Shown here: positions 3,030 through 62,629 of the stretch, piece after piece | Position numbering within the stretch: position 1 is the stretch's first letter | How the letters are laid out: the number at the start of each line of letters is the position of its first letter | Sequence record: MT611523.1 | Direction: 5' to 3' (one strand) | Origin: Escherichia phage DK-13 | Length of the DNA: 64,000 bases | Position numbers and translations under genes: made by a program | Notes under the pieces: model-generated | Told to the model about the DNA's origin: nothing | The model's database searches: none | What the model saw: only the letters and a program-made list of their open reading frames with translations

Positions 3030-3776
3030 TTAACCTCTAATCAGTTTAAAAATTGACGCGTTCAAAGGTAGACCACGTTTCAGTTTTAATTTACCAATAA
3101 AACCAATCTTCTCAAAACGCTCAAGACCTTGAATGATTTTATCATAGCAATCAAAAAGCGTTTCAGCATCAGTTAATTTCTTGGTAACTTTCCAGTCATT
3201 ACCTTTGAGCAGGACATTCAATTTAGTAAGCTCATGTCCTTCCGCAACACGGGAACCATCAATGCGAGCCTTCAGAGCAACCATTTTTAATTGGTTTTCT
3301 TTGGACTGCTCTGATTTACTCATTTGAGCATAATGCTTAACGCGATTATCACGTTTGTGCTGGATGTTCTTGATATGAGTATATGACTTTTTAATCTGTT
3401 CCCATTTCTCTGAAGTCAGATTTAACTTTTCAATCTTCTTGGCAGAGGGGCGAGCAATTTTTACAGCAACATCATCGCGACGTTGTTTAAGCTCATCCAG
3501 GGACCAATCAGAACGCATGGTATTGTATTTCTTTTTAACAGGAATAACATTACCCTTGATATAACCAATATCATTGTTAAAACGCTCTAATGATAACTTC
3601 TCACCTTCAATAGAGTTATTAAATGCTTCACCAGAATAGGCACAAACTTTTTGGTCAAGAATGTTAACCAGGTAATTGAAATCCAGGTTAAAGTCTTTAC
3701 CGCGGCGTTTAGCGGAAGCTTGAGTGTGTTCCAAACGACGTTTAACTTTCAGCGTTTTGGTTTTTGATAAAGTCAT
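3030..3776 (-). CDS. hypothetical early protein (248 aa), in the T4 srd position
   Basis: ATG 3774-3776; own class-B promoter upstream; lysine-rich; srd assignment is by position and size only. Confidence 0.5.
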   Translation of the reverse strand: MTLSKTKTLKVKRRLEHTQASAKRRGKDFNLDFNYLVNILDQKVCAYSGEAFNNSIEGEKLSLERFNNDIGYIKGNVIPVKKKYNTMRSDWSLDELKQRRDDVAVKIARPSAKKIEKLNLTSEKWEQIKKSYTHIKNIQHKRDNRVKHYAQMSKSEQSKENQLKMVALKARIDGSRVAEGHELTKLNVLLKGNDWKVTKKLTDAETLFDCYDKIIQGLERFEKIGFIGKLKLKRGLPLNASIFKLIRG

Positions 3777-3822
3777 GATATTTTTCTCATCTTACGGACG
3801 ATTGAAAACTCAGTATGGATTC

Positions 3823-3850
3823 ATTATATACTATTCATCTTTTATGTACA
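3823..3850 (-). promoter_or_regulatory. sigma70-type early promoter with class-B leader
   Basis: minus-strand -35 TGTACA (3845-3850), 16-nt spacer, -10 TATAAT (3823-3828), leader GAATCCATACTGAGTT. Confidence 0.5.
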
Positions 3851-11544: not shown

Positions 11545-11740
11545 ATTGTTCCCTTCTTTTAATCAGTTGGCGATGTGCCTTTTTAAGTTTACGAATCTGA
11601 CGTTTAGTCGGTCGAGCAACGTAAGCTTGAGTAGTTACTCGTCCAAAAACTCCATACTTGGGAGACGGAGTATCAATAAAGACTTCCCATTGACAAGAGT
11701 AACTATATATTGCTTTAGAGAATTGGGTCAAAACAAACAT
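11519..11740 (-). CDS. small basic protein, PTKRQIR paralogue 1 (73 aa)
   Basis: W..hI ... Y.ARPTKRQIRKLKK motif shared with ORFs 12887-13126 and 35730-35915. Confidence 0.45.
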   Translation of the reverse strand: MFVLTQFSKAIYSYSCQWEVFIDTPSPKYGVFGRVTTQAYVARPTKRQIRKLKKAHRQLIKRREQYECNVYGL

Positions 11741-11741
11741 A

Positions 11742-12095
11742 TTAACCTCGCTTCATGAAGGCATTAAAAATCTGGTCGTCAACAGACTGTTCTTGAGCTT
11801 TGACCCAAGCTCCTTCCAGAATGTCATTCGCTTCAGTAGATATCATGACCCCAATTTCAGGGTTTCCTGTTATCCATGCTGCACAATCGCGCACATTCTT
11901 TTTATCAAATGGGTAGCCGCGAGTATCTTCATAAGGTCCATTCATTACCATAAATGAGCGAGCCTTTATGATAACATCATCTTTAACGATAATATAACCA
12001 ATCGCCTGATTAAACCGAGGCTCACGGAATTCATAATGAGCATTACCGTCATTATTGCTCGCTAGTTCAAAATTCAGAAAATTATAATAACTCAT
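11742..12095 (-). CDS. hypothetical protein (117 aa)
   Basis: C-terminus VDDQIFNAFMKRG encoded by the 37-nt direct repeat shared with the next gene. Confidence 0.45.
   Translation of the reverse strand: MSYYNFLNFELASNNDGNAHYEFREPRFNQAIGYIIVKDDVIIKARSFMVMNGPYEDTRGYPFDKKNVRDCAAWITGNPEIGVMISTEANDILEGAWVKAQEQSVDDQIFNAFMKRG
11747..11783. repeat. 37-nt direct repeat, copy 1 (CTCGCTTCATGAAGGCATTAAAAATCTGGTCGTCAAC)
   Basis: identical to 12102-12138; encodes the last ~12 codons of both adjacent genes. Confidence 0.8.
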
Positions 12096-12096
12096 A

Positions 12097-12534
12097 CTAA
12101 TCTCGCTTCATGAAGGCATTAAAAATCTGGTCGTCAACTGAATATACAGGGGTTTCCAGAATTTTCAAAAGACTGTTTTTGATGTACTTACCCGGGATAC
12201 CCATATTAACAATACTGTCATTCAATTCATTGTCAGGGTTGATGTCTTTAAATTCAAACCCGTCAAACTCAACCTTGTCAGGAATACCATCAGCGAAAAA
12301 ATAAACCAATTGGTGCATTGTATTGCACGAAAATAATTTGGACTTGACCGCAATAAGTTCTTTCCAATGGTTTAATTCTTTGTTAAGAAGCTTATGAGCA
12401 AACGTAATTCTATCATCACTATCAACAAGAAAATAACCCAGGTATTGAATGTCGTCGCTCCAAAACACCCGGTATGCCTGTGCATTTGGATTTTTACAGC
12501 GAAGTTTTTTGATAACTAAATTTCTGTTAATCAT
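12097..12534 (-). CDS. hypothetical protein (about 145 aa)
   Basis: internal Met start chosen to avoid overlap with upstream ORF; C-terminus SVDDQIFNAFMKRD from repeat copy 2. Confidence 0.4.
   Translation of the reverse strand: MINRNLVIKKLRCKNPNAQAYRVFWSDDIQYLGYFLVDSDDRITFAHKLLNKELNHWKELIAVKSKLFSCNTMHQLVYFFADGIPDKVEFDGFEFKDINPDNELNDSIVNMGIPGKYIKNSLLKILETPVYSVDDQIFNAFMKRD
12102..12138. repeat. 37-nt direct repeat, copy 2
   Basis: identical to 11747-11783. Confidence 0.8.
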
Positions 12535-38799: not shown

Positions 38800-39785
38800 T
38801 TCAGCAGCTCCAGAGCCTGTTCCAGTTTATCCAGACGATTAGTTGATTCTTCCCAAAGTCGCTTGGCTTTGGTATAGTCTTCAGTTGCCTTTTTATTAAC
38901 AGCAAGAGCTTTATTATACGCCATTTCCAGAGCAACAATTTCAGGCGCTTTTTGTTCCACTGGCTCATTATTCAGATTATCAATCAGGTCTTCAAGGGTG
39001 GTTTCTTGTGGTGCATTCATAATTTCCTCACTTTTCTTTTTATAAATTTCTGCAACAGTTGGTTGTTTTGCACATTTAACTTCATGCAATGTCGTCACAA
39101 TTTTCCAACCTTTCCAACCATGAGTACTGGTGATAGGGTCTACTTTAATTTTTTCAACAGTACGCATATAGTTAAGGGCACACTGCAGCTGATGAGTAAG
39201 AACGCATGCAACGTCAAGATACTTTTTGACATTTTCTGGAGTAGCCACTGGTGTAAAGAACTCATACTTAACTGTAATAATTACCTGGTTTTCACCAGAC
39301 TCTTTAACATTTATCATGTGCCCAGCCAGATGGGAGATAGTGCGATAATCGCCACCCATCAATTTTGTCGCTGATTTGATGATAGACATTTTGTTATCTC
39401 TGAATTCACGAGCCCAACAATTTGCGAATTCAGAAGCAGTATAGCCTTGTTTATCAAGATAGTATTTTTCAACATCGCCAAACCAATGATATCCAATTGT
39501 ACCTTTACCACGTCTGGATTCAACACCAAACTTGTTAAGAATGTCTTTATTAACCAGGTATGCCAGGACTCGGGAACTTTTAAAAGTTTTCTTGATATCA
39601 TCGTTACCAGCACGACTCGCAATAGTTGCAATGTCTTTCTTGAAGCGGCCAGATGCAACAATCGTCGAGTCAATCTGATTTAACCAATAATTGATAATTA
39701 AAAGGATAGCCGATTCGCCTATCAATGGTTTTACTTTTGTGTCGATAGTTGCGTTAAAGGCCTGGATATATTCGTTACGTGTCAT
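38796..39785 (-). CDS. hypothetical protein with C-terminal coiled coil (329 aa)
   Basis: long co-oriented ORF; heptad-like C-terminus ...LDKLEQALELLK. Confidence 0.5.
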   Translation of the reverse strand: MTRNEYIQAFNATIDTKVKPLIGESAILLIINYWLNQIDSTIVASGRFKKDIATIASRAGNDDIKKTFKSSRVLAYLVNKDILNKFGVESRRGKGTIGYHWFGDVEKYYLDKQGYTASEFANCWAREFRDNKMSIIKSATKLMGGDYRTISHLAGHMINVKESGENQVIITVKYEFFTPVATPENVKKYLDVACVLTHQLQCALNYMRTVEKIKVDPITSTHGWKGWKIVTTLHEVKCAKQPTVAEIYKKKSEEIMNAPQETTLEDLIDNLNNEPVEQKAPEIVALEMAYNKALAVNKKATEDYTKAKRLWEESTNRLDKLEQALELLK

Positions 39786-39843
39786 AGTGTTCTCCTCATA
39801 AAGTAGGAATTCATTATACTCCCTCCATCCTTGGAAGTAAACA

Positions 39844-41917: not shown

Positions 41918-42442
41918 TTATGCGAGAACCGTCTTTAAACGCTCTTCAAACTTCTGAAGGAGTACCTGGCGCTCTGCTCTTTGTTTGGTATAGGTTTCAA
42001 TACGCTCTGAAGTGAGATTGTATTGTTCATTAACTGATTCCCGCATGAATTCAGGAATCTCTTTACATGCTTTGATTTCATTGAACTTATCAAGCACCGC
42101 TTGTTGTTCAGCAATCAGACCATCATAATATTGGATATCTGATTTGATGTTTTGTACATCAGATTCAGTAGGCATATTTTTCTTCGCTCTTGCCGCTTGA
42201 TATTCTGCATTAGTCTCTCTTGACCAGAACAAAGAGCGGTTTTTGTTGGTGTTTTTATACACATCAACAATACCAACTGAATCAACAGTCGCAATCCAGT
42301 TCCAGGCGTTTTTATAAGTCTGACCACCTGATACTGTAATCTCACCCGCACAAGCAACATCATTAAAGAACTTACTTTGTGCTTCTGATTTAAAATTACC
42401 ATTATTGTAATTAATCAGATTAAAGATTGATTTGGCTTCCAT
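41918..42442 (-). CDS. hypothetical protein (174 aa)
   Basis: ATG 42440-42442 after class-B leader. Confidence 0.45.
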   Translation of the reverse strand: MEAKSIFNLINYNNGNFKSEAQSKFFNDVACAGEITVSGGQTYKNAWNWIATVDSVGIVDVYKNTNKNRSLFWSRETNAEYQAARAKKNMPTESDVQNIKSDIQYYDGLIAEQQAVLDKFNEIKACKEIPEFMRESVNEQYNLTSERIETYTKQRAERQVLLQKFEERLKTVLA

Positions 42443-42478
42443 TTTATTCTCCAGTATTTGGTAACTCAGTATGGGAAC

Positions 42479-42508
42479 ATTATACGTCTATCCCCATACT
42501 ATGTACAC
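42479..42508 (-). promoter_or_regulatory. early promoter with class-B leader
   Basis: -35 TGTACA (42503-42508), -10 TATAAT (42479-42484), leader CCATACTGAGTTACCAAATACTGGAG. Confidence 0.5.
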
Positions 42509-42819: not shown

Positions 42820-43026
42820 TCACTTGCGACGACGTTTTGGTAATGGTTTAGGGAAGAACATTGCTTTACCTGCAGGGGTCAAAGTCACACGCAAAGCATT
42901 ACCAATACCAAGGGATGCTTTAACCAGACCTTTGGCTTTTAACTCACCAAATGCTTGACGTTGTTCAGGGTCACGAGTGTTAACCATCAGACCTTTTTCA
43001 CCAGCAGCTTTGATTAATTCTAACAT
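42820..43026 (-). CDS. small basic protein (68 aa)
   Basis: ATG after class-B leader; C-terminal KPLPKRRRK tail. Confidence 0.4.
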   Translation of the reverse strand: MLELIKAAGEKGLMVNTRDPEQRQAFGELKAKGLVKASLGIGNALRVTLTPAGKAMFFPKPLPKRRRK

Positions 43027-43067
43027 TTTATTCTCCGTTTGTTTATTTGGTAACTCAGTATGGAATC

Positions 43068-43096
43068 ATTATGCCTCATGACCATCTGGTTGTACA
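43068..43096 (-). promoter_or_regulatory. early promoter with class-B leader
   Basis: -35 TGTACA (43091-43096), 17-nt spacer, -10 CATAAT (43068-43073), leader GATTCCATACTGAGTTACCAAATAAAC. Confidence 0.5.
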
Positions 43097-43143
43097 CATA
43101 TACTAAATAAAAATACTTAATAAAACCATAAAGGAGAAAGTTT

Positions 43144-43890
43144 ATGATTTTATCCGGAAGAACTGTTGATGAACTCAATGAAAAAGTCCAGGCTGCCTTG
43201 GCTGATAATTGGTATTTGTTTGGTTCTACTATGGTGTTGCCGAATACCCCTACAGATAGCAAAGAGCGTTTTTTCCAAACTATGTCCAGCTCGGAAACTC
43301 AGATACCGGGTCCGCCTGGTCCCAAAGGAGAACCGGGTGTACCCGGACCAAAAGGAGACCCAGGTGGGGATGGAAAATCTTCTTATCAGATATGGCTTGA
43401 CTTGGGAAATACAGGAACTGTTGATGATTTTTTAACTGATACAGCAGGAAAGAGGGAAAAATCCGAGGTGTTTTGGAGTGGTATAAACGTTCTATTAACT
43501 AATGGTACGACTTCAAACATAATTAGTGTTTTAAAGGGGATTCCACCGACTGCAGGGACTCTATCTCCGTTTTTTAGAACCACTGATGATAAGTTGTGGC
43601 CATATAACCAAGACAGAAGCCTAATGTTTAAACTCAACCTTATTGGTAATTTTGCAGGAGCCTCGCAAGCTCGAAGTATAACATTAAATTTCGTTGGAAC
43701 CAACGGAAACACTTATATACAGAATCGTCCGGAAAATGCTACAGATATTTTGTCTTTTACAACGTTCTTTAGCATTGATAAAGATGGGGCAATGGCAACC
43801 AATGGTACAGCTATAACTGTTATGCCAAATGGCGGCAACTTTACAATAACCTCCGCATTGTTAGTAGCCGAACAAACAGTGACTTCATAA
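43144..43890 (+). CDS. collagen-repeat protein (248 aa), plus strand
   Basis: SD AAGGAGAAAG 5 nt before ATG; seven consecutive G-X-Y triplets (GPPGPKGEPGVPGPKGDPGGDG) after a ~60-aa N-terminal domain, then a ~165-aa Gly/Thr/Asn-rich C-terminal domain. Confidence 0.6.
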   Translation: MILSGRTVDELNEKVQAALADNWYLFGSTMVLPNTPTDSKERFFQTMSSSETQIPGPPGPKGEPGVPGPKGDPGGDGKSSYQIWLDLGNTGTVDDFLTDTAGKREKSEVFWSGINVLLTNGTTSNIISVLKGIPPTAGTLSPFFRTTDDKLWPYNQDRSLMFKLNLIGNFAGASQARSITLNFVGTNGNTYIQNRPENATDILSFTTFFSIDKDGAMATNGTAITVMPNGGNFTITSALLVAEQTVTS

Positions 43891-47340: not shown

Positions 47341-47409
47341 TGTGTTCTCCTCAGTAGTTGATGGGATAATAGTACACCCTTTTTATGGTGATGTAAACCC
47401 CCTAAATGA

Positions 47410-50969: not shown

Positions 50970-51428
50970 TTAGATATAAATCACTTTTGTGCTAATTTTT
51001 CCTTCCAGACGATTAGAGTTAACAAACGCCATACGACAACACATGGTCGGAGACTTCCCAGGAATAGCGGGGTTAACTGTCATTCCTAACCACAGGTTCT
51101 TGTCCGTGATTTCCAGACGAAGTGGACGGTAGTTCACATTCGGGTCAATTTGTGCTTCAACTTCCGGGAGTGGTTTCATCTCCAAGAATTCAACGATTTC
51201 TTTTACATGTGGTGTGATTTTTCCAAACAAGTCAAAAACATATTGTTCATCAATTTCACGTTGGATTGCACGGTCCAACAGGTGTGGACTGTACTTAATG
51301 AAGAATGCCTCAAGGCCTGCTTCTTTACAAGCCTTGTTGATAGCATTATTAATTTTGAGGAACTCCGTTTCAAAAATGCGACGAAGTTTATTGCGGCGAA
51401 TGTAAACACTTGAATCGATAGTAGTCAT
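50970..51428 (-). CDS. regB: endoribonuclease RegB
   Basis: 153 aa from MTTIDSS; VYIRRNKLRR...KYS.HLLDRAIQREIDE.YVF collinear with T4 RegB; ORF-track start 51485 overlaps the promoter -35. Confidence 0.9.
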   Translation of the reverse strand: MTTIDSSVYIRRNKLRRIFETEFLKINNAINKACKEAGLEAFFIKYSPHLLDRAIQREIDEQYVFDLFGKITPHVKEIVEFLEMKPLPEVEAQIDPNVNYRPLRLEITDKNLWLGMTVNPAIPGKSPTMCCRMAFVNSNRLEGKISTKVIYI

Positions 51429-57956: not shown

Positions 57957-58184
57957 TTATTTTCCTAACGAAATACGAGTAGGTTTTTTGCCAAAATATT
58001 CTTCATAAGAACCATCTAAACGACCCGCTTTAGACCGACAGTATGAATCGTACTTTTTGTAATAAGTCATCTCAGTATTATAACGCGGGTGTCTATCAGC
58101 CATAATAATACTTAATGGCCAACCTTTGGCATAATCGCGAAGACCATTTATTTTACTAATGTATCTTTTCTTTAATTTTAGCAT
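57957..58184 (-). CDS. hypothetical protein (75 aa)
   Basis: co-oriented ORF. Confidence 0.4.
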   Translation of the reverse strand: MLKLKKRYISKINGLRDYAKGWPLSIIMADRHPRYNTEMTYYKKYDSYCRSKAGRLDGSYEEYFGKKPTRISLGK

Positions 58185-58402
58185 GAGCTCGGGTACCAGA
58201 TTTTACCGTCGGCGCGGGCAACGAAGGTACGACCAGCTTCTTCGCCGTAACAAGAGCTATTCAGCCAATCTTCAAGACGAACTTCACCGTCATAATCATC
58301 TAGCTCAACACCAAAATCCTGAGCAGAAGCCATATCTTTTACTTTCTTATACAGGGCAGCCAGTTCAAGAGCAGCTTTTTCTAATTCGTTAATATCAGTC
58401 AT
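58178..58402 (-). CDS. hypothetical acidic protein (74 aa)
   Basis: co-oriented ORF. Confidence 0.4.
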   Translation of the reverse strand: MTDINELEKAALELAALYKKVKDMASAQDFGVELDDYDGEVRLEDWLNSSCYGEEAGRTFVARADGKIWYPSSC

Positions 58403-58411
58403 TTTTATTCC

Positions 58412-58624
58412 TTAGCATTCGTAAGAGGAGGACACCCAAGAGGTACCACTAATTGTAATACAACCATTATAAAGCGTAATATGTCGTTCTAGGTCACGAA
58501 CACCATCAATGTAGATATCAGCTTCTTCGCGTTCTTCTTTACAAATCTGGATAACGTTTTCAATAGCTGCCGCGGCAGTACGGATTGCACAATCTAATTC
58601 ACGAGACATATAATTCCTTAACAT
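58412..58624 (-). CDS. small protein, WVSSSxxC paralogue 1 (70 aa)
   Basis: C-terminus SWVSSSYEC shared with the two next ORFs. Confidence 0.45.
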   Translation of the reverse strand: MLRNYMSRELDCAIRTAAAAIENVIQICKEEREEADIYIDGVRDLERHITLYNGCITISGTSWVSSSYEC

Positions 58625-58899
58625 TCAGAAGAGGAGGACACCCAACCGCCATTTTCCAGGTCAGTTGTATAGTCATGAGTGTTAACAATAGCCCATTCAG
58701 GATGGCCATATTCTTCCCAATGGGCAAGGTCAGCTTTCAAGGCACCAAGAGAATAATAGTCACCGCCCATACCGCGAGCAGGGTATATATTAAAATGAGT
58801 CTCATATTTGTTTGCAATTTCCTCGGCACGCCGAATAGCTTTATGGATGTCATTTACTGCGTTAGCCAGTTCTTTATTTTTACGGTAATCATTCACCAT
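58618..58899 (-). CDS. small protein, WVSSSxxC paralogue 2 (93 aa)
   Basis: C-terminus GWVSSSSEC. Confidence 0.45.
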   Translation of the reverse strand: MVNDYRKNKELANAVNDIHKAIRRAEEIANKYETHFNIYPARGMGGDYYSLGALKADLAHWEEYGHPEWAIVNTHDYTTDLENGGWVSSSSEC

Positions 58900-58908
58900 A
58901 ACGTTTCC

Positions 58909-59199
58909 TTAGCACATTGCCGAAGAGGAGACCCAAGCACCAACTGTAACGACACCGTTTTCAACTTCACCGCCGTTGTTTTCAATTTCATCTTTAAACC
59001 ACTGGGAGCATTCATAACCGACAGGATAATATGTACGGCCTGAACCATAATCACCGGTACCGAATTGGATACCATATTCATCTGCGATTTCTTCGCAGTG
59101 TTTTTCAATTTCAGAGGTCTTATTTAGAAGAGAATAGATGGCTTTTTCTGCAGATTTCTCATCATAATACTTGGGGATAGCAATTTCAATTTTATTCAT
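58909..59199 (-). CDS. small protein, WVSSSxxC paralogue 3 (96 aa)
   Basis: C-terminus AWVSSSAMC. Confidence 0.45.
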   Translation of the reverse strand: MNKIEIAIPKYYDEKSAEKAIYSLLNKTSEIEKHCEEIADEYGIQFGTGDYGSGRTYYPVGYECSQWFKDEIENNGGEVENGVVTVGAWVSSSAMC

Positions 59200-60466: not shown

Positions 60467-61060
60467 TTACTTAAGTGAATTAATGTATTCTTCAATGTCA
60501 GCGGACGTGGTATCCACACCAACCTGTGGGCCTTTGAAGGTTTCAACACGCATCAGAGTGTCTTCAATATCAATCTTAGTCAATGCAGCGATTTCAACAA
60601 CATCATCTGCAGTCGCAATACCCAGGGCAGATACCTTACGGGTTTCGCGGATGTATTCCAGTTTAACAGCTAGTTCCTGACGAGAATCATCCAACTCTTT
60701 AACTTTCAATTTAATTTCATTACGCATTTCAACATAATCATCTGCCTTCTTACGAAGTTGTTTAGCAGTACGACGATACAGGAGACCCAGTTTAGCATGG
60801 ACCTGGACATCCGCACCATCAGCAATCAGTTTGCGGATTTCACGCTCTTTTGAAGCGGCGAGTTGGTCTTTTTCATTCGCTAACTCACGGATGCGTTTTT
60901 CTTCATTAACCGACTTAACGTGGGCGGTCTGGAGCTCAGTAATCTTGTCAATCAGGGTAGACGCTGCTTGAGTATATTGGTCTTCAATAGACAGATTTTT
61001 TGTCATTGCAGTACCCAGTTTGGAGCGGATGAATTCAACAAGTTTCTTTAAAGTATTCAT
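60467..61060 (-). CDS. coiled-coil protein, possibly PspA/IM30-like (197 aa)
   Basis: continuous heptad-rich helical sequence of PspA-like length. Confidence 0.3.
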
Positions 61061-61126
61061 GGTATTTCCTTCAGTTGGTTAATATTTTATTATCCAATGT
61101 TTTATTGTGTAACTCAGTATGGAATC

Positions 61127-61155
61127 ATTATGCCTTAAAGCAGGGGGCTTGTATA
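61127..61155 (-). promoter_or_regulatory. early promoter with class-B leader; -35 in hairpin loop
   Basis: -35 TATACA (61150-61155) inside the GGGGG...CCCCC hairpin, 17-nt spacer, -10 CATAAT. Confidence 0.5.
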
Positions 61156-61167
61156 CCCCCTTTTGAA

Positions 61168-61611
61168 TTAAATTTCAAATTCTTTGCGGAAGTTGGAAGC
61201 ATAAGACTGAACTGATGCTTTGTTGAATCCAAACTCACGCACAATCATATCAATAACAGCTCTGCGAGCAGCACCATTAGACATATTAACAGTTTTGAAC
61301 ATATCATAGCATAAATCTTTGTTGCTCATACCGGAGCGTTTAGGTGCCTTACGTTCAGCTTTTGGTTCAGTCTTAGGAGTAGGTTTAACTTCTGGTTTAA
61401 CCTGTCCATCATTCAGACCTTTAAAAATTTTACCTGCCAGAGTTGCCAGTTTAGCAGCTTCGCCACGAGTGATACCAAATACTGCCGGGTTAAATGAAAT
61501 ACCTTCAGCTGTCAGACGTTTGAAGAACATACGTGCGGCGGATTGTGCTTCAGCTTCAGAAGAGTTGTTTAATGCCAGTTTAATGTACTTAACCAGTTTT
61601 GAAGTTTTCAT
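61168..61611 (-). CDS. hypothetical protein (147 aa), paralogous C-terminal domain
   Basis: C-terminal block NGAARRAVIDMIV...VQSYASNFRK shared with ORF 62064-62489. Confidence 0.45.
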   Translation of the reverse strand: MKTSKLVKYIKLALNNSSEAEAQSAARMFFKRLTAEGISFNPAVFGITRGEAAKLATLAGKIFKGLNDGQVKPEVKPTPKTEPKAERKAPKRSGMSNKDLCYDMFKTVNMSNGAARRAVIDMIVREFGFNKASVQSYASNFRKEFEI

Positions 61612-61653
61612 TTTATTATCCCGTTTGTTTATTTGGTAACTCAGTATGGAATC

Positions 61654-61682
61654 ATTATGTCTTAGTTAAATTCCAAAGTACA
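61654..61682 (-). promoter_or_regulatory. early promoter with class-B leader
   Basis: -35 TGTACT (61677-61682), 17-nt spacer, -10 CATAAT. Confidence 0.45.
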
Positions 61683-61684
61683 CA

Positions 61685-61981
61685 TTAATTTTCAGAAGTT
61701 GGGAAATAAACTTCAAAGTCATACATGTTTACTACCGCAGACGCGATTGCCTGGTACTGCATACCTAAGAAAGTTTTCTTATTCTTGCGCCACAAGTTAA
61801 CCATTTCTGTTTTGATGCATGCCAGGGAATAGTTGGATGCAGGATACTGTTTGATGATTGCAACAACTTCTTCAGAAGCAGTTTCACACAATTCATTCAG
61901 TTGAGCTTCAATTTTAGCAGAAATGATTGCTTTGTTTTCTTCTTGAGCTTGGGTAGCGTGCCATGCAGGTGCGTTAAACAT
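61685..61981 (-). CDS. hypothetical protein (98 aa)
   Basis: co-oriented ORF with class-B promoter. Confidence 0.45.
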   Translation of the reverse strand: MFNAPAWHATQAQEENKAIISAKIEAQLNELCETASEEVVAIIKQYPASNYSLACIKTEMVNLWRKNKKTFLGMQYQAIASAVVNMYDFEVYFPTSEN

Positions 61982-62022
61982 TTTATTCTCCAGTGTTTTA
62001 TTTGGTAACTCAGTATGGGATA

Positions 62023-62051
62023 ATTATACACTATCCCACCTGGAAGTAAAA
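62023..62051 (-). promoter_or_regulatory. early promoter with class-B leader
   Basis: -35 TTTTAC (62046-62051), 17-nt spacer, -10 TATAAT (62023-62028). Confidence 0.45.
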
Positions 62052-62063
62052 CACTTTTCTCAA

Positions 62064-62489
62064 TTATTTTTGAGCTTTGCGGAAGTTGGAAGCATAAGAC
62101 TGAACAACAGTCTTTTTGATATCATGGGTGTTAACCAGAACATCAATCAGGGCGCGGCGAGCTGCACCATCTGCCATATCAATTTCTGCAAATGCCTGGA
62201 AGCAAATGTCGCGGGCGTTACCAGATTTAGACTGGATTTTTTCTTCTTTAACTTCTTCAATTGGGAATTCAATCATTTCAGCTTGGATTAATTCAATGAT
62301 AGATTCTTTTGACTGTTTGGTGTTTACCTTCAGTTCAGAATTAAGGGACTTGGCGATGGCAACAATCTGGGTTGAAGTCAGATGAATAAGTGCATCTTCA
62401 CGAATGCAGATTTCACATACTTCGTCAGCAACCATTTTGTTGGTGATGCGGGTAACAGAGAATGCAGAGGTCAGGGTCAGAAAGTTCAT
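62064..62489 (-). CDS. hypothetical protein (about 141 aa), paralogous C-terminal domain
   Basis: start at MNFLTL (ORF-track start 62570 overlaps the promoter -35); C-terminal DGAARRALIDVLV...VQSYASNFRK. Confidence 0.45.
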   Translation of the reverse strand: MNFLTLTSAFSVTRITNKMVADEVCEICIREDALIHLTSTQIVAIAKSLNSELKVNTKQSKESIIELIQAEMIEFPIEEVKEEKIQSKSGNARDICFQAFAEIDMADGAARRALIDVLVNTHDIKKTVVQSYASNFRKAQK

Positions 62490-62540
62490 TTTATTTCTCC
62501 AAAGTTTTGTTTGATTCAGTGTGTAACTCAGTATGGAATC

Positions 62541-62569
62541 ATTATGCATCCAGTCAATTCGGATGTACA
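62541..62569 (-). promoter_or_regulatory. early promoter with class-B leader
   Basis: -35 TGTACA (62564-62569), 17-nt spacer, -10 CATAAT (62541-62546). Confidence 0.5.
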
Positions 62570-62604
62570 CTACTTTTTGAAGAAAATTTCAAATTTATTC
62601 GGGG

Positions 62605-62629
62605 TATAAAAAAGCCCGCATTGCGGGCT
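62605..62629 (-). terminator. rho-independent terminator
   Basis: GCCCGCA-TT-GCGGGC hairpin followed by TTTTTT on minus strand. Confidence 0.55.

Follow-up and report, generated by a model that had tools for sequence, protein, structure and literature searches.

The closest described relatives of the sequences reported here are the PeSLs (promoter-early stem-loop), mobile cassettes of T4-type phages (Arbiol et al. 2010, PMC2839356; Comeau et al. 2014, PMC4122927), which have been reported from RB49/phi1, T4/PST and KVP40/nt-1 but not from Gaprivervirus, and whose stem-loops occupy five described positions (PMC2839356). The early promoters of T4 carry GTTTAC at -36 to -31, an UP-like A-tract and TATAAT (Nolan et al. 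2006, PMC1524935). T4-type phages typically have a GT(G/T)TAC -35 element and C residues at -3 to -1 in their early promoters (PMC1524935). In the T-even internal-protein (IP) locus, small exchangeable genes lie between repeated intergenic sequences that contain early promoters (Repoila et al. 1994, as cited in PMC4122927). For T4 early mRNAs, the consensus of the strong RegB/S1 cleavage sites is GG/AGRAYARAA (Durand et al., summarised in PMC3014915).

The window analysed here, a stretch of 64,000 nt of Escherichia phage DK-13 (MT611523.1), belongs to Gaprivervirus (T4-like), is 97% identical to Escherichia phage vB_EcoM_RZ and has nearly all of its genes on the minus (early) strand. It contains a repeat family, class B, in which an UP-like A-tract, the -35 element GTGTACA, a variable spacer of 17 nt, the -10 element YATAAT, the invariant sequence CCATACTGAGTTAC, an A-rich tail, GGAGAATAAA and ATG follow each other in this order. 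Class B resembles the PeSLs in its AT-rich upstream tract, its sigma-70-like early promoter, the SD-box and start codon at its 3′-end and, in part of the copies, a stem-loop located at the -35, at the -10 or upstream; it is likewise concentrated in hyperplastic regions in front of small ORFans, and an ORF flanked by two cassettes in one genome corresponds to one hybrid cassette in a close relative, with the crossover lying between the -10 and the ATG. In contrast to PeSLs, the -35 is GTGTACA, an invariant initial transcribed block of ~16 nt splits the cassettes into two families, and a strong stem-loop is present in only about half of the copies. We consider it likely that the class-B repeats are self-contained early expression cassettes of the PeSL type, which double as portable recombination homology. 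Neither the fit to the published PeSLs nor the role of the cassettes as junctions between related genomes had been noticed in the preliminary description of this sequence.

All seven class-B copies listed in that description are present where it had placed them (Table 1). It had given no strand, and all seven proved to lie on the minus strand. An exact 14-nt core CCATACTGAGTTAC was found at 42461, 43050, 61109, 61636, 62005 and 62523, and a core with two mismatches at 3805; the full 27-mer has four matches in the window at ≤3 mismatches, compared with none in 100 shuffles. Seven copies stand against none expected by chance. Each of the seven is followed by a Shine-Dalgarno sequence and then by an ATG and an ORF, and six of the seven end in GGAG(A)ATAAAATG or a close variant. 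The proposed layout TGTACA/17 nt/(C/T)ATAAT holds exactly in copies 1 (which fits by a 16- or 17-nt reading of its spacer), 2, 3 and 7, whereas copies 4, 5 and 6 deviate from it. The claim of a conserved leader stood for the -10, the discriminator and the first ~16 transcribed nt, which are invariant, while the distal "CAAATAAAC" part varies in both sequence and length. On the minus strand, copy 3, from which this analysis started, reads gTGTACA-accagatggtcatgagg-CATAAT-GATTCCATACTGAGTTACCAAATAAAC-aaacGGAGaataaaATG.

Table 1. Class-B copies and related features of the window
Feature	Coordinates	Strand	Description
Copy 1	3774-3850	-	TGTACA 3850-3845, TATAAT 3828-3823, core CCATACTGAGTTtt 3818-3805, ATG of srd homologue 3776
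Copy 2	42440-42507	-	TGTACA-17-TATAAT, core 42474-42461, GGAGAATAAAATG, ATG 42442
Copy 3	43024-43096	-	TGTACA-17-CATAAT, leader GATTCCATACTGAGTTACCAAATAAACAAACGGAGAATAAAATG, ATG 43026 of 68-aa ORF
Copy 4	61058-61163	-	-35 TATACA, CATAAT, core 61122-61109, true SD and ATG 61060
Copy 5	61609-61682	-	TGTACT-17-CATAAT, core 61649-61636, GGGATAATAAAATG, ATG 61611 of 147-aa ORF
Copy 6	61979-62052	-	GTTTTAC/TTTACT-16-TATAAT, core 62018-62005, GGAGAATAAAATG, ATG 61981
Copy 7	62487-62569	-	TGTACA-17-CATAAT, core 62536-62523, longer leader, GGAGAAATAAAATG, ATG 62489 of 141-aa ORF
Intrinsic-terminator-like hairpin with T-run	62613-62629	-	just upstream of copy 7
98-aa ORFan module	61685-61981	-	copy 6 upstream, copy 5 downstream
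regB endoribonuclease gene	50970-51428	-	PF10715 REGB_T4, E=2e-72
Class-A example	47341-47397	-	TTTACA-17-TACTAT-TATCCCATCAACTACTGAGGAGAACACAATG

Neither a Pfam domain nor a known function could be assigned to six of the seven downstream ORFs; the remaining one, ORF 3030-3776 behind copy 1, matches PHROG 1400, the Srd anti-sigma factor. Copy 2 precedes a conserved ORF of unassigned function in the nrdC region. The cluster of four copies at 61.1-62.6 kb, whose downstream ORFs had been said to lack recognisable domains, was confirmed on both points (no Pfam domain). It is located in the mosaic e-ipI region, which separates the e.x genes from the internal-protein genes and in which the coverage by relatives is only 36-100%. 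This position, in the hyperplastic e-to-ipI region adjoining the IP genes, recalls the repeated sequences of the IP locus mentioned above; in contrast to these, the genes behind the four copies have no MKTYQEFI capsid-targeting sequence, and the IP genes carry class-A-like leaders here. Two ORFs upstream of B cassettes, 61168-61611 and 62064-62489 (both on the minus strand), are paralogues (PHROGs 18416 and 9997) with the common C-terminal domain ...GAARRA(V/L)IDxxV...VQSYASNFRK. Their homologue in Morganella phage MP1 has the same C-terminal ending and is also situated directly upstream of a B cassette.

The -35 and -10 hexamers of all seven copies match in 9-10 of 12 positions at a spacing of 16-17 nt, and an AAAAAG-type tract lies upstream, as predicted for sigma-70-like promoters; in a generic promoter scan, sigma-70-like sites in the cassette regions were not in excess over shuffles. 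The overall architecture, including the C residues at -3 to -1, is that of the T4 early promoters, from which class B differs in having G instead of T at -34. The host sigma-70 RNA polymerase is predicted to use the A-rich UP-like tract, GTGTACA, the 17-bp spacer, YATAAT and the C-rich discriminator, and the predicted transcription start is the A of CCATAC. The transcript would open with the invariant ~16-nt AUACUGAGUUAC(C/A), continue with an A-rich, unstructured stretch of variable length and end in GGAGAAUAAA-AUG, which combines a strong ribosome-binding site with a perfect match to the RegB/S1 consensus. The B leader also scores as a second sigma-70-like site, TTACCA-17/18-TAAAAT, with a -10-like hexamer overlapping the start codon (43025-43053, 61610-61639 and 61980-62008, minus strand); these sites are probably incidental.

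Two other readings of the promoter region were rejected. The MotA box of T4 is (a/t)(a/t)(a/t)TGCTTtA, centred at -30 in place of the -35, while the cassettes have GTGTACA as their -35 region and no TGCTT 11-13 nt from the -10, which argues against MotA-dependent middle promoters. A coding or leader-peptide function was dismissed because the ORFs running through cassettes (e.g., 62064-62570 and 61897-62031, "ILSY") are out of frame with the downstream gene and start inside the promoter.

The preliminary description had proposed folding each leader together with its start codon. When the leaders were folded as RNA from the predicted +1 to codon 11, the minimum free energy was -2 to -4 kcal/mol in five copies and -7.1 kcal/mol for the long leader of copy 4, and z-scores of +0.06 to +1.9 indicated no more structure than in shuffled sequences. 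The B leaders are therefore predicted to be unstructured, with an unpaired probability of 0.6-0.75 from the SD to the AUG. Rfam and tRNA scans of the whole window gave no matches, and a structured cis-regulatory RNA (riboswitch, attenuator or thermometer) was rejected on the basis of the positive z-scores throughout and the lack of an Rfam match.

Stem-loops were found around the promoter elements. In ~13 of 30 cassettes genome-wide, the variable spacer is complementary to the discriminator and the initial transcribed sequence (ITS), forming a hairpin that encloses the -10; the complementary runs are 8-11 nt long (P≤0.01 each versus shuffled spacers). The spacer follows the variant of the discriminator, ATGGGATA pairing with TATCCCAT, AGTATGGG with CCCATACT, and TCAGTATGGA with TCCATACTGA. 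Hairpins of the Gn-loop-Cn type surround the -35 in other cassettes, represented in the window by copy 4, the -35 of which lies in the loop of the G5/C5 hairpin GGGGG-tatacaa-CCCCC. Within the window, stem-loops are strong in copies 2, 4 and 6, moderate in copy 3 and weak in copies 1 and 5, and copy 7 has a separate upstream terminator. A convincing stem-loop occurs in only 4-5 of the seven copies. The variety of positions agrees with that described for PeSLs by Arbiol et al. The hairpin of copy 2, in which the spacer pairs with both the discriminator and the ITS, has -19.5 kcal/mol (its orthologue has z=-4.5 against spacer shuffles), and the 10-13 bp hairpin around the -10 of copy 6 has -20.3 kcal/mol. 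These structures, present in about half of the cassettes at the -10, at the -35 or as an upstream terminator, would buffer the downstream gene from read-through, and the hairpin preceding copy 7, if it acts as a terminator, would shield this copy from upstream transcription. Since the -10 hairpins have no U-tract, their role as terminators is uncertain.

The repeat search also recovered class A (CCATCAACTACTGAGGAG), with 9-11 copies in the window and the layout GTGTACA-17-TATnAT-TATCCCATCAACTACTGA(G/T)GAGG...ATG. The existence of a second promoter-plus-leader family distinct from class A was borne out. For a census of the cassettes, the whole genome of a relative, TH44 (MT446415.1), was used, in which 13 class-B and 17 class-A cassettes were counted. 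All of them lie on the early strand; their -35, -10 and ITS are constant and their spacers differ. Both classes have in common the A-rich upstream tract, the -35 GTGTACA, the length of the spacer, the -10, the C-rich discriminator and the predicted +1 A; their sequences begin to differ only at about +4, and there are A/B hybrids, for example at position 135740 of TH44. Srd is encoded behind class B, and modA/B-like genes, sp, imm, regB and denV behind class A. The suggestion that the two leader families mark two differently regulated early classes found no support at the level of transcription, as the promoter elements are the same and hybrids occur, and any difference between A and B would have to be post-transcriptional.

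Some leaders in both genomes depart from these two types. The class-A copies at 456 and 31975 (minus strand) belong to a subset with the leader CAUCAACUACUGAUGAGG, which can form a 5′-terminal 5-bp hairpin, CAUCA/UGAUG, while the variant ACUGAGGAG cannot; class A itself may therefore comprise two subtypes. The cassette at 39785-39841 (minus strand), preceding a 329-aa ORF, has an intermediate leader (TATAAT-GAATTCCTACTTTATGAGGAGAACACTATG) that cannot be assigned cleanly to either class. At ~153590-153660 of TH44, an early cassette with a different ITS combines the spacer/ITS hairpin GGTACAGGTT...AACCTGTACC with a distal leader that resembles class B and terminates in a perfect RegB consensus, which suggests that further leader families exist.

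A post-transcriptional difference could plausibly arise through RegB. The 3′ block GGAGAAUAAAA of the cassettes is an exact match to the strong RegB/S1 consensus, and GGAGRAYARAA occurs at five sites in the window versus 0.38 expected, three of them in class-B cassettes and one in class A. Copies 2 (42442-42452), 3 (43026-43036) and 6 match exactly, copies 4 and 5 carry a GGAU variant, a single nucleotide is inserted in copy 7, and copy 1 does not match. On the early strand of TH44, 12 perfect sites were found (eight in class B, three in class A and one in another early cassette), corresponding to 8 of 13 B versus 3 of 17 A cassettes (Fisher P=0.023). As in the strong RegB sites of T4, GGAGAAUAAAA is located in the translation initiation region of early genes, and regB is encoded in the window; the block is not exclusive to class B. 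By analogy with the T4 consensus, the product of regB would be the trans-acting nuclease for this block, the cut being predicted in GG/AGAAUAAAA of the B leaders. Because the ribosome-binding site doubles as the RegB consensus, the downstream gene is expected to be translated right after infection and to be inactivated once RegB accumulates.

The two leader families differ greatly in their distribution. The class-A leader matches 634 phage records, T4 included, where ATCAACTACTGAGGAGAATAAAATG is found near-verbatim together with a spacer-discriminator hairpin (the ipI/tRNA.4 intergenic region of T4 reads GTTTACA...TACTAT-taccctATCAACTACTGAGGAGAATAAAATG). Class B matches 47 records only. A motif search in related phages, as the preliminary description had proposed, detected it across Gaprivervirus, at 8-13 places per genome, and outside this genus at a few loci in Gualtarvirus (Morganella phage MP1 and Providencia phage PSTRCR_121), Dhakavirus IME341 and fDHCT2. 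In MP1 and PSTRCR_121 the class-B ITS precedes homologous genes. The ITS CCATACTGAGTTAC was not found in Tequatrovirus, and a scan of IMG/VR returned the same isolates and one short metagenomic contig. From the record counts and the taxonomic spread, class A is the old leader common to the Tevenvirinae and class B a lineage-restricted derivative. The possibility raised earlier that the motif is a generic host promoter element was rejected, as class B had no match in 5,426 E. coli genomes (20,395 records). A literature search revealed no description of these motifs or of Gaprivervirus promoters; the paper on MP1 gives only MEME-predicted promoters.

Comparison of orthologous cassettes showed that 28% of the sites are variable in the spacer compared with 7% in the -10 plus ITS (P=5e-5), 11% in the distal leader and 12% at third codon positions. 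The difference between the ITS and third codon positions (7% versus 12%) was not significant (P=0.19), a comparison that is underpowered at the shallow divergence of close orthologues. The 17-nt spacer (e.g., 42480-42501 and 62542-62563) varies more than twice as much as third codon positions, with the changes concentrated in its 3′ half; this variability could result from mosaic recombination or from tracking of the hairpin partner. Paralogous cassettes are alike in the motif blocks only. The pattern seen in the ITS is compatible with functional constraint, with concerted evolution by recombination, or with both.

These data bear on the origin of the repeats. If the similarity were due to recent tandem duplication of gene-plus-promoter units and the conserved sequence had no function, the clustering of four copies would be explained, as would the similarity that the paralogous ORFs 61168-61611 and 62064-62489 create upstream of copies 4 and 6. 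Duplication alone would, however, keep the spacer equally conserved, whereas the seven copies have unrelated 17-nt spacers and mostly unrelated flanks around an identical -10-to-ITS block, the copies are spread over 170 kb in front of unrelated genes, and the block is conserved in Gualtarvirus. We regard this explanation as very improbable, and in its simple, recent form duplication is ruled out by the restriction of paralogue similarity to the motif blocks together with the retention of the ITS in another genus.

The same conservation could instead mean that the invariant ITS/leader is bound by a dedicated phage or host factor, which would make class B a regulon with its own kinetics or stability. 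The ITS is invariant in 13 paralogues with unrelated spacers and flanks and has been kept in another genus, the spacer varies four times more than the ITS among orthologues, and the strong RegB consensus is enriched in B relative to A. Nevertheless, the promoter elements are identical to those of class A and hybrids exist, the leader has neither a structure, nor an Rfam family, nor an antisense copy in the window, the genes behind A and B overlap in kind, and some A cassettes also possess the RegB block, so we judge a separate regulon of this type unlikely. The functions proposed for a PeSL-type cassette do not account for the invariance of the first 16 transcribed nt. A more speculative view, to which we give little credence, is that the ~16-nt block AUACUGAGUUAC is a specific recognition element as RNA or DNA, either a factor-read tag of a RegB-hypersensitive, "burst-only" accessory regulon or an attC-like docking site in the style of integrons; if the attC-like version were true, ORF cassettes would move between genomes and genera. 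Both versions are compatible with the persistence of the block from Gaprivervirus to Gualtarvirus beside hypervariable spacers.

The role as portable recombination homology was examined by comparing the window with nine Gaprivervirus loci by local blastn. In six of the nine relatives, a synteny block ends at the -35 edge of copy 3 (43097), and blocks also end at 61084-61096 in the leader of copy 4; further breakpoints are located at 61658 (copy 5) and 61979 (copy 6), each in five relatives, and at 62617, in the terminator preceding copy 7, in two. Several class-A cassettes also coincide with the ends of synteny blocks. Altogether, 6 of 28 breakpoint clusters fell inside cassettes, which make up 4.3% of the region (P=0.001). 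When measured against intergenic DNA alone, no enrichment in cassettes was observed (5 of 11, P=0.47), thus much of the association could reflect a preference for intergenic DNA in general, and we do not claim that the cassettes attract breakpoints beyond their intergenic location. It is therefore the sequence of the junctions, not the statistic, that provides the real evidence.

Two such junctions were resolved in natural genomes. RZ, TH55, TH41, TH40 and TH15 contain one hybrid cassette in place of the ORF 61685-61981 and its two flanking copies, and this hybrid consists of copy-6 sequence upstream and copy-5 sequence downstream of the common CCATACTGAGTTACCAAATAAA, which is the crossover site. 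The 98-aa ORF, which has no Pfam domain, is present or absent as a unit among the relatives and was found in 15 records only (13 distinct genomes), at an identity of at least 99% in all of them. At the site of copy 4, TH44 has an extra 101-aa ORF that is absent from the window, where a relic SD and the dead start GGATAATAAAATA are retained in the leader at 61096-61084, before the true SD; the deletion in the window is joined at the microhomology TGGA(G/T)AATAAAA of the SD-block. Since the -10-to-leader block is near-identical ~13 times per genome, it can serve as portable homology, and recombination within it would delete, insert or swap the small ORFs behind the cassettes.

That crossovers lie precisely within the conserved block would also be expected if the repeat were the target or att-like site of a homing endonuclease or a recombinase; site-specific recombination was left open by Arbiol et al. 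(PMC4122927). Against such an active site, the 13-22 nt of common sequence are sufficient to explain the junctions, as in homologous or microhomology-mediated exchange, the two junctions are in different parts of the cassette, and the cassettes have no recombinase or endonuclease gene as a consistent neighbour; we find an enzyme-specific target highly unlikely. A transposon- or MITE-like element was rejected as well, because terminal inverted repeats, target-site duplications and a transposase are lacking.

Understood as PeSL-type cassettes, the class-B repeats do not overturn current understanding; they would be a lineage-specific version of a known category and would extend the PeSL concept to a further T4-like genus, with junctions resolved at the sequence level in natural isolates. 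One genome would hold two non-interchangeable families of cassette homology, which would channel the choice of the modules that recombine. As the main carriers of perfect RegB sites, the class-B genes are predicted to be expressed in a short burst. For annotation and engineering, the cassettes would mark immediate-early accessory genes as well as natural, safe junctions for the insertion or deletion of genes.

Some other features of the window are worth recording. ORF 43144-43890 (plus strand, 248 aa), surrounded by genes of the opposite orientation within the early nrdC region, has an Sf6-type tail-needle-knob domain (PF16532, E=3e-32) together with a collagen-like stretch. It belongs to an indel (43098-43888) that the window has in common with RZ, TH40 and TH54 and that six other Gapriverviruses lack, and one of its junctions lies exactly at the -35 edge of copy 3. 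Direct-repeat families unrelated to the cassettes occur in the window at 58407-58936, 11738-12141 and 8249/9998/37026. They comprise ATTCCTTAGCATTCGTAAGAGGAGGACACCCAA, repeated three times (33 nt each) at distances of ~200-290 nt in a region that coincides with a synteny breakpoint (58173-58417), a pair of 49-nt repeats with 94% identity at a distance of 355 nt, and a separate 44-nt family of three copies.
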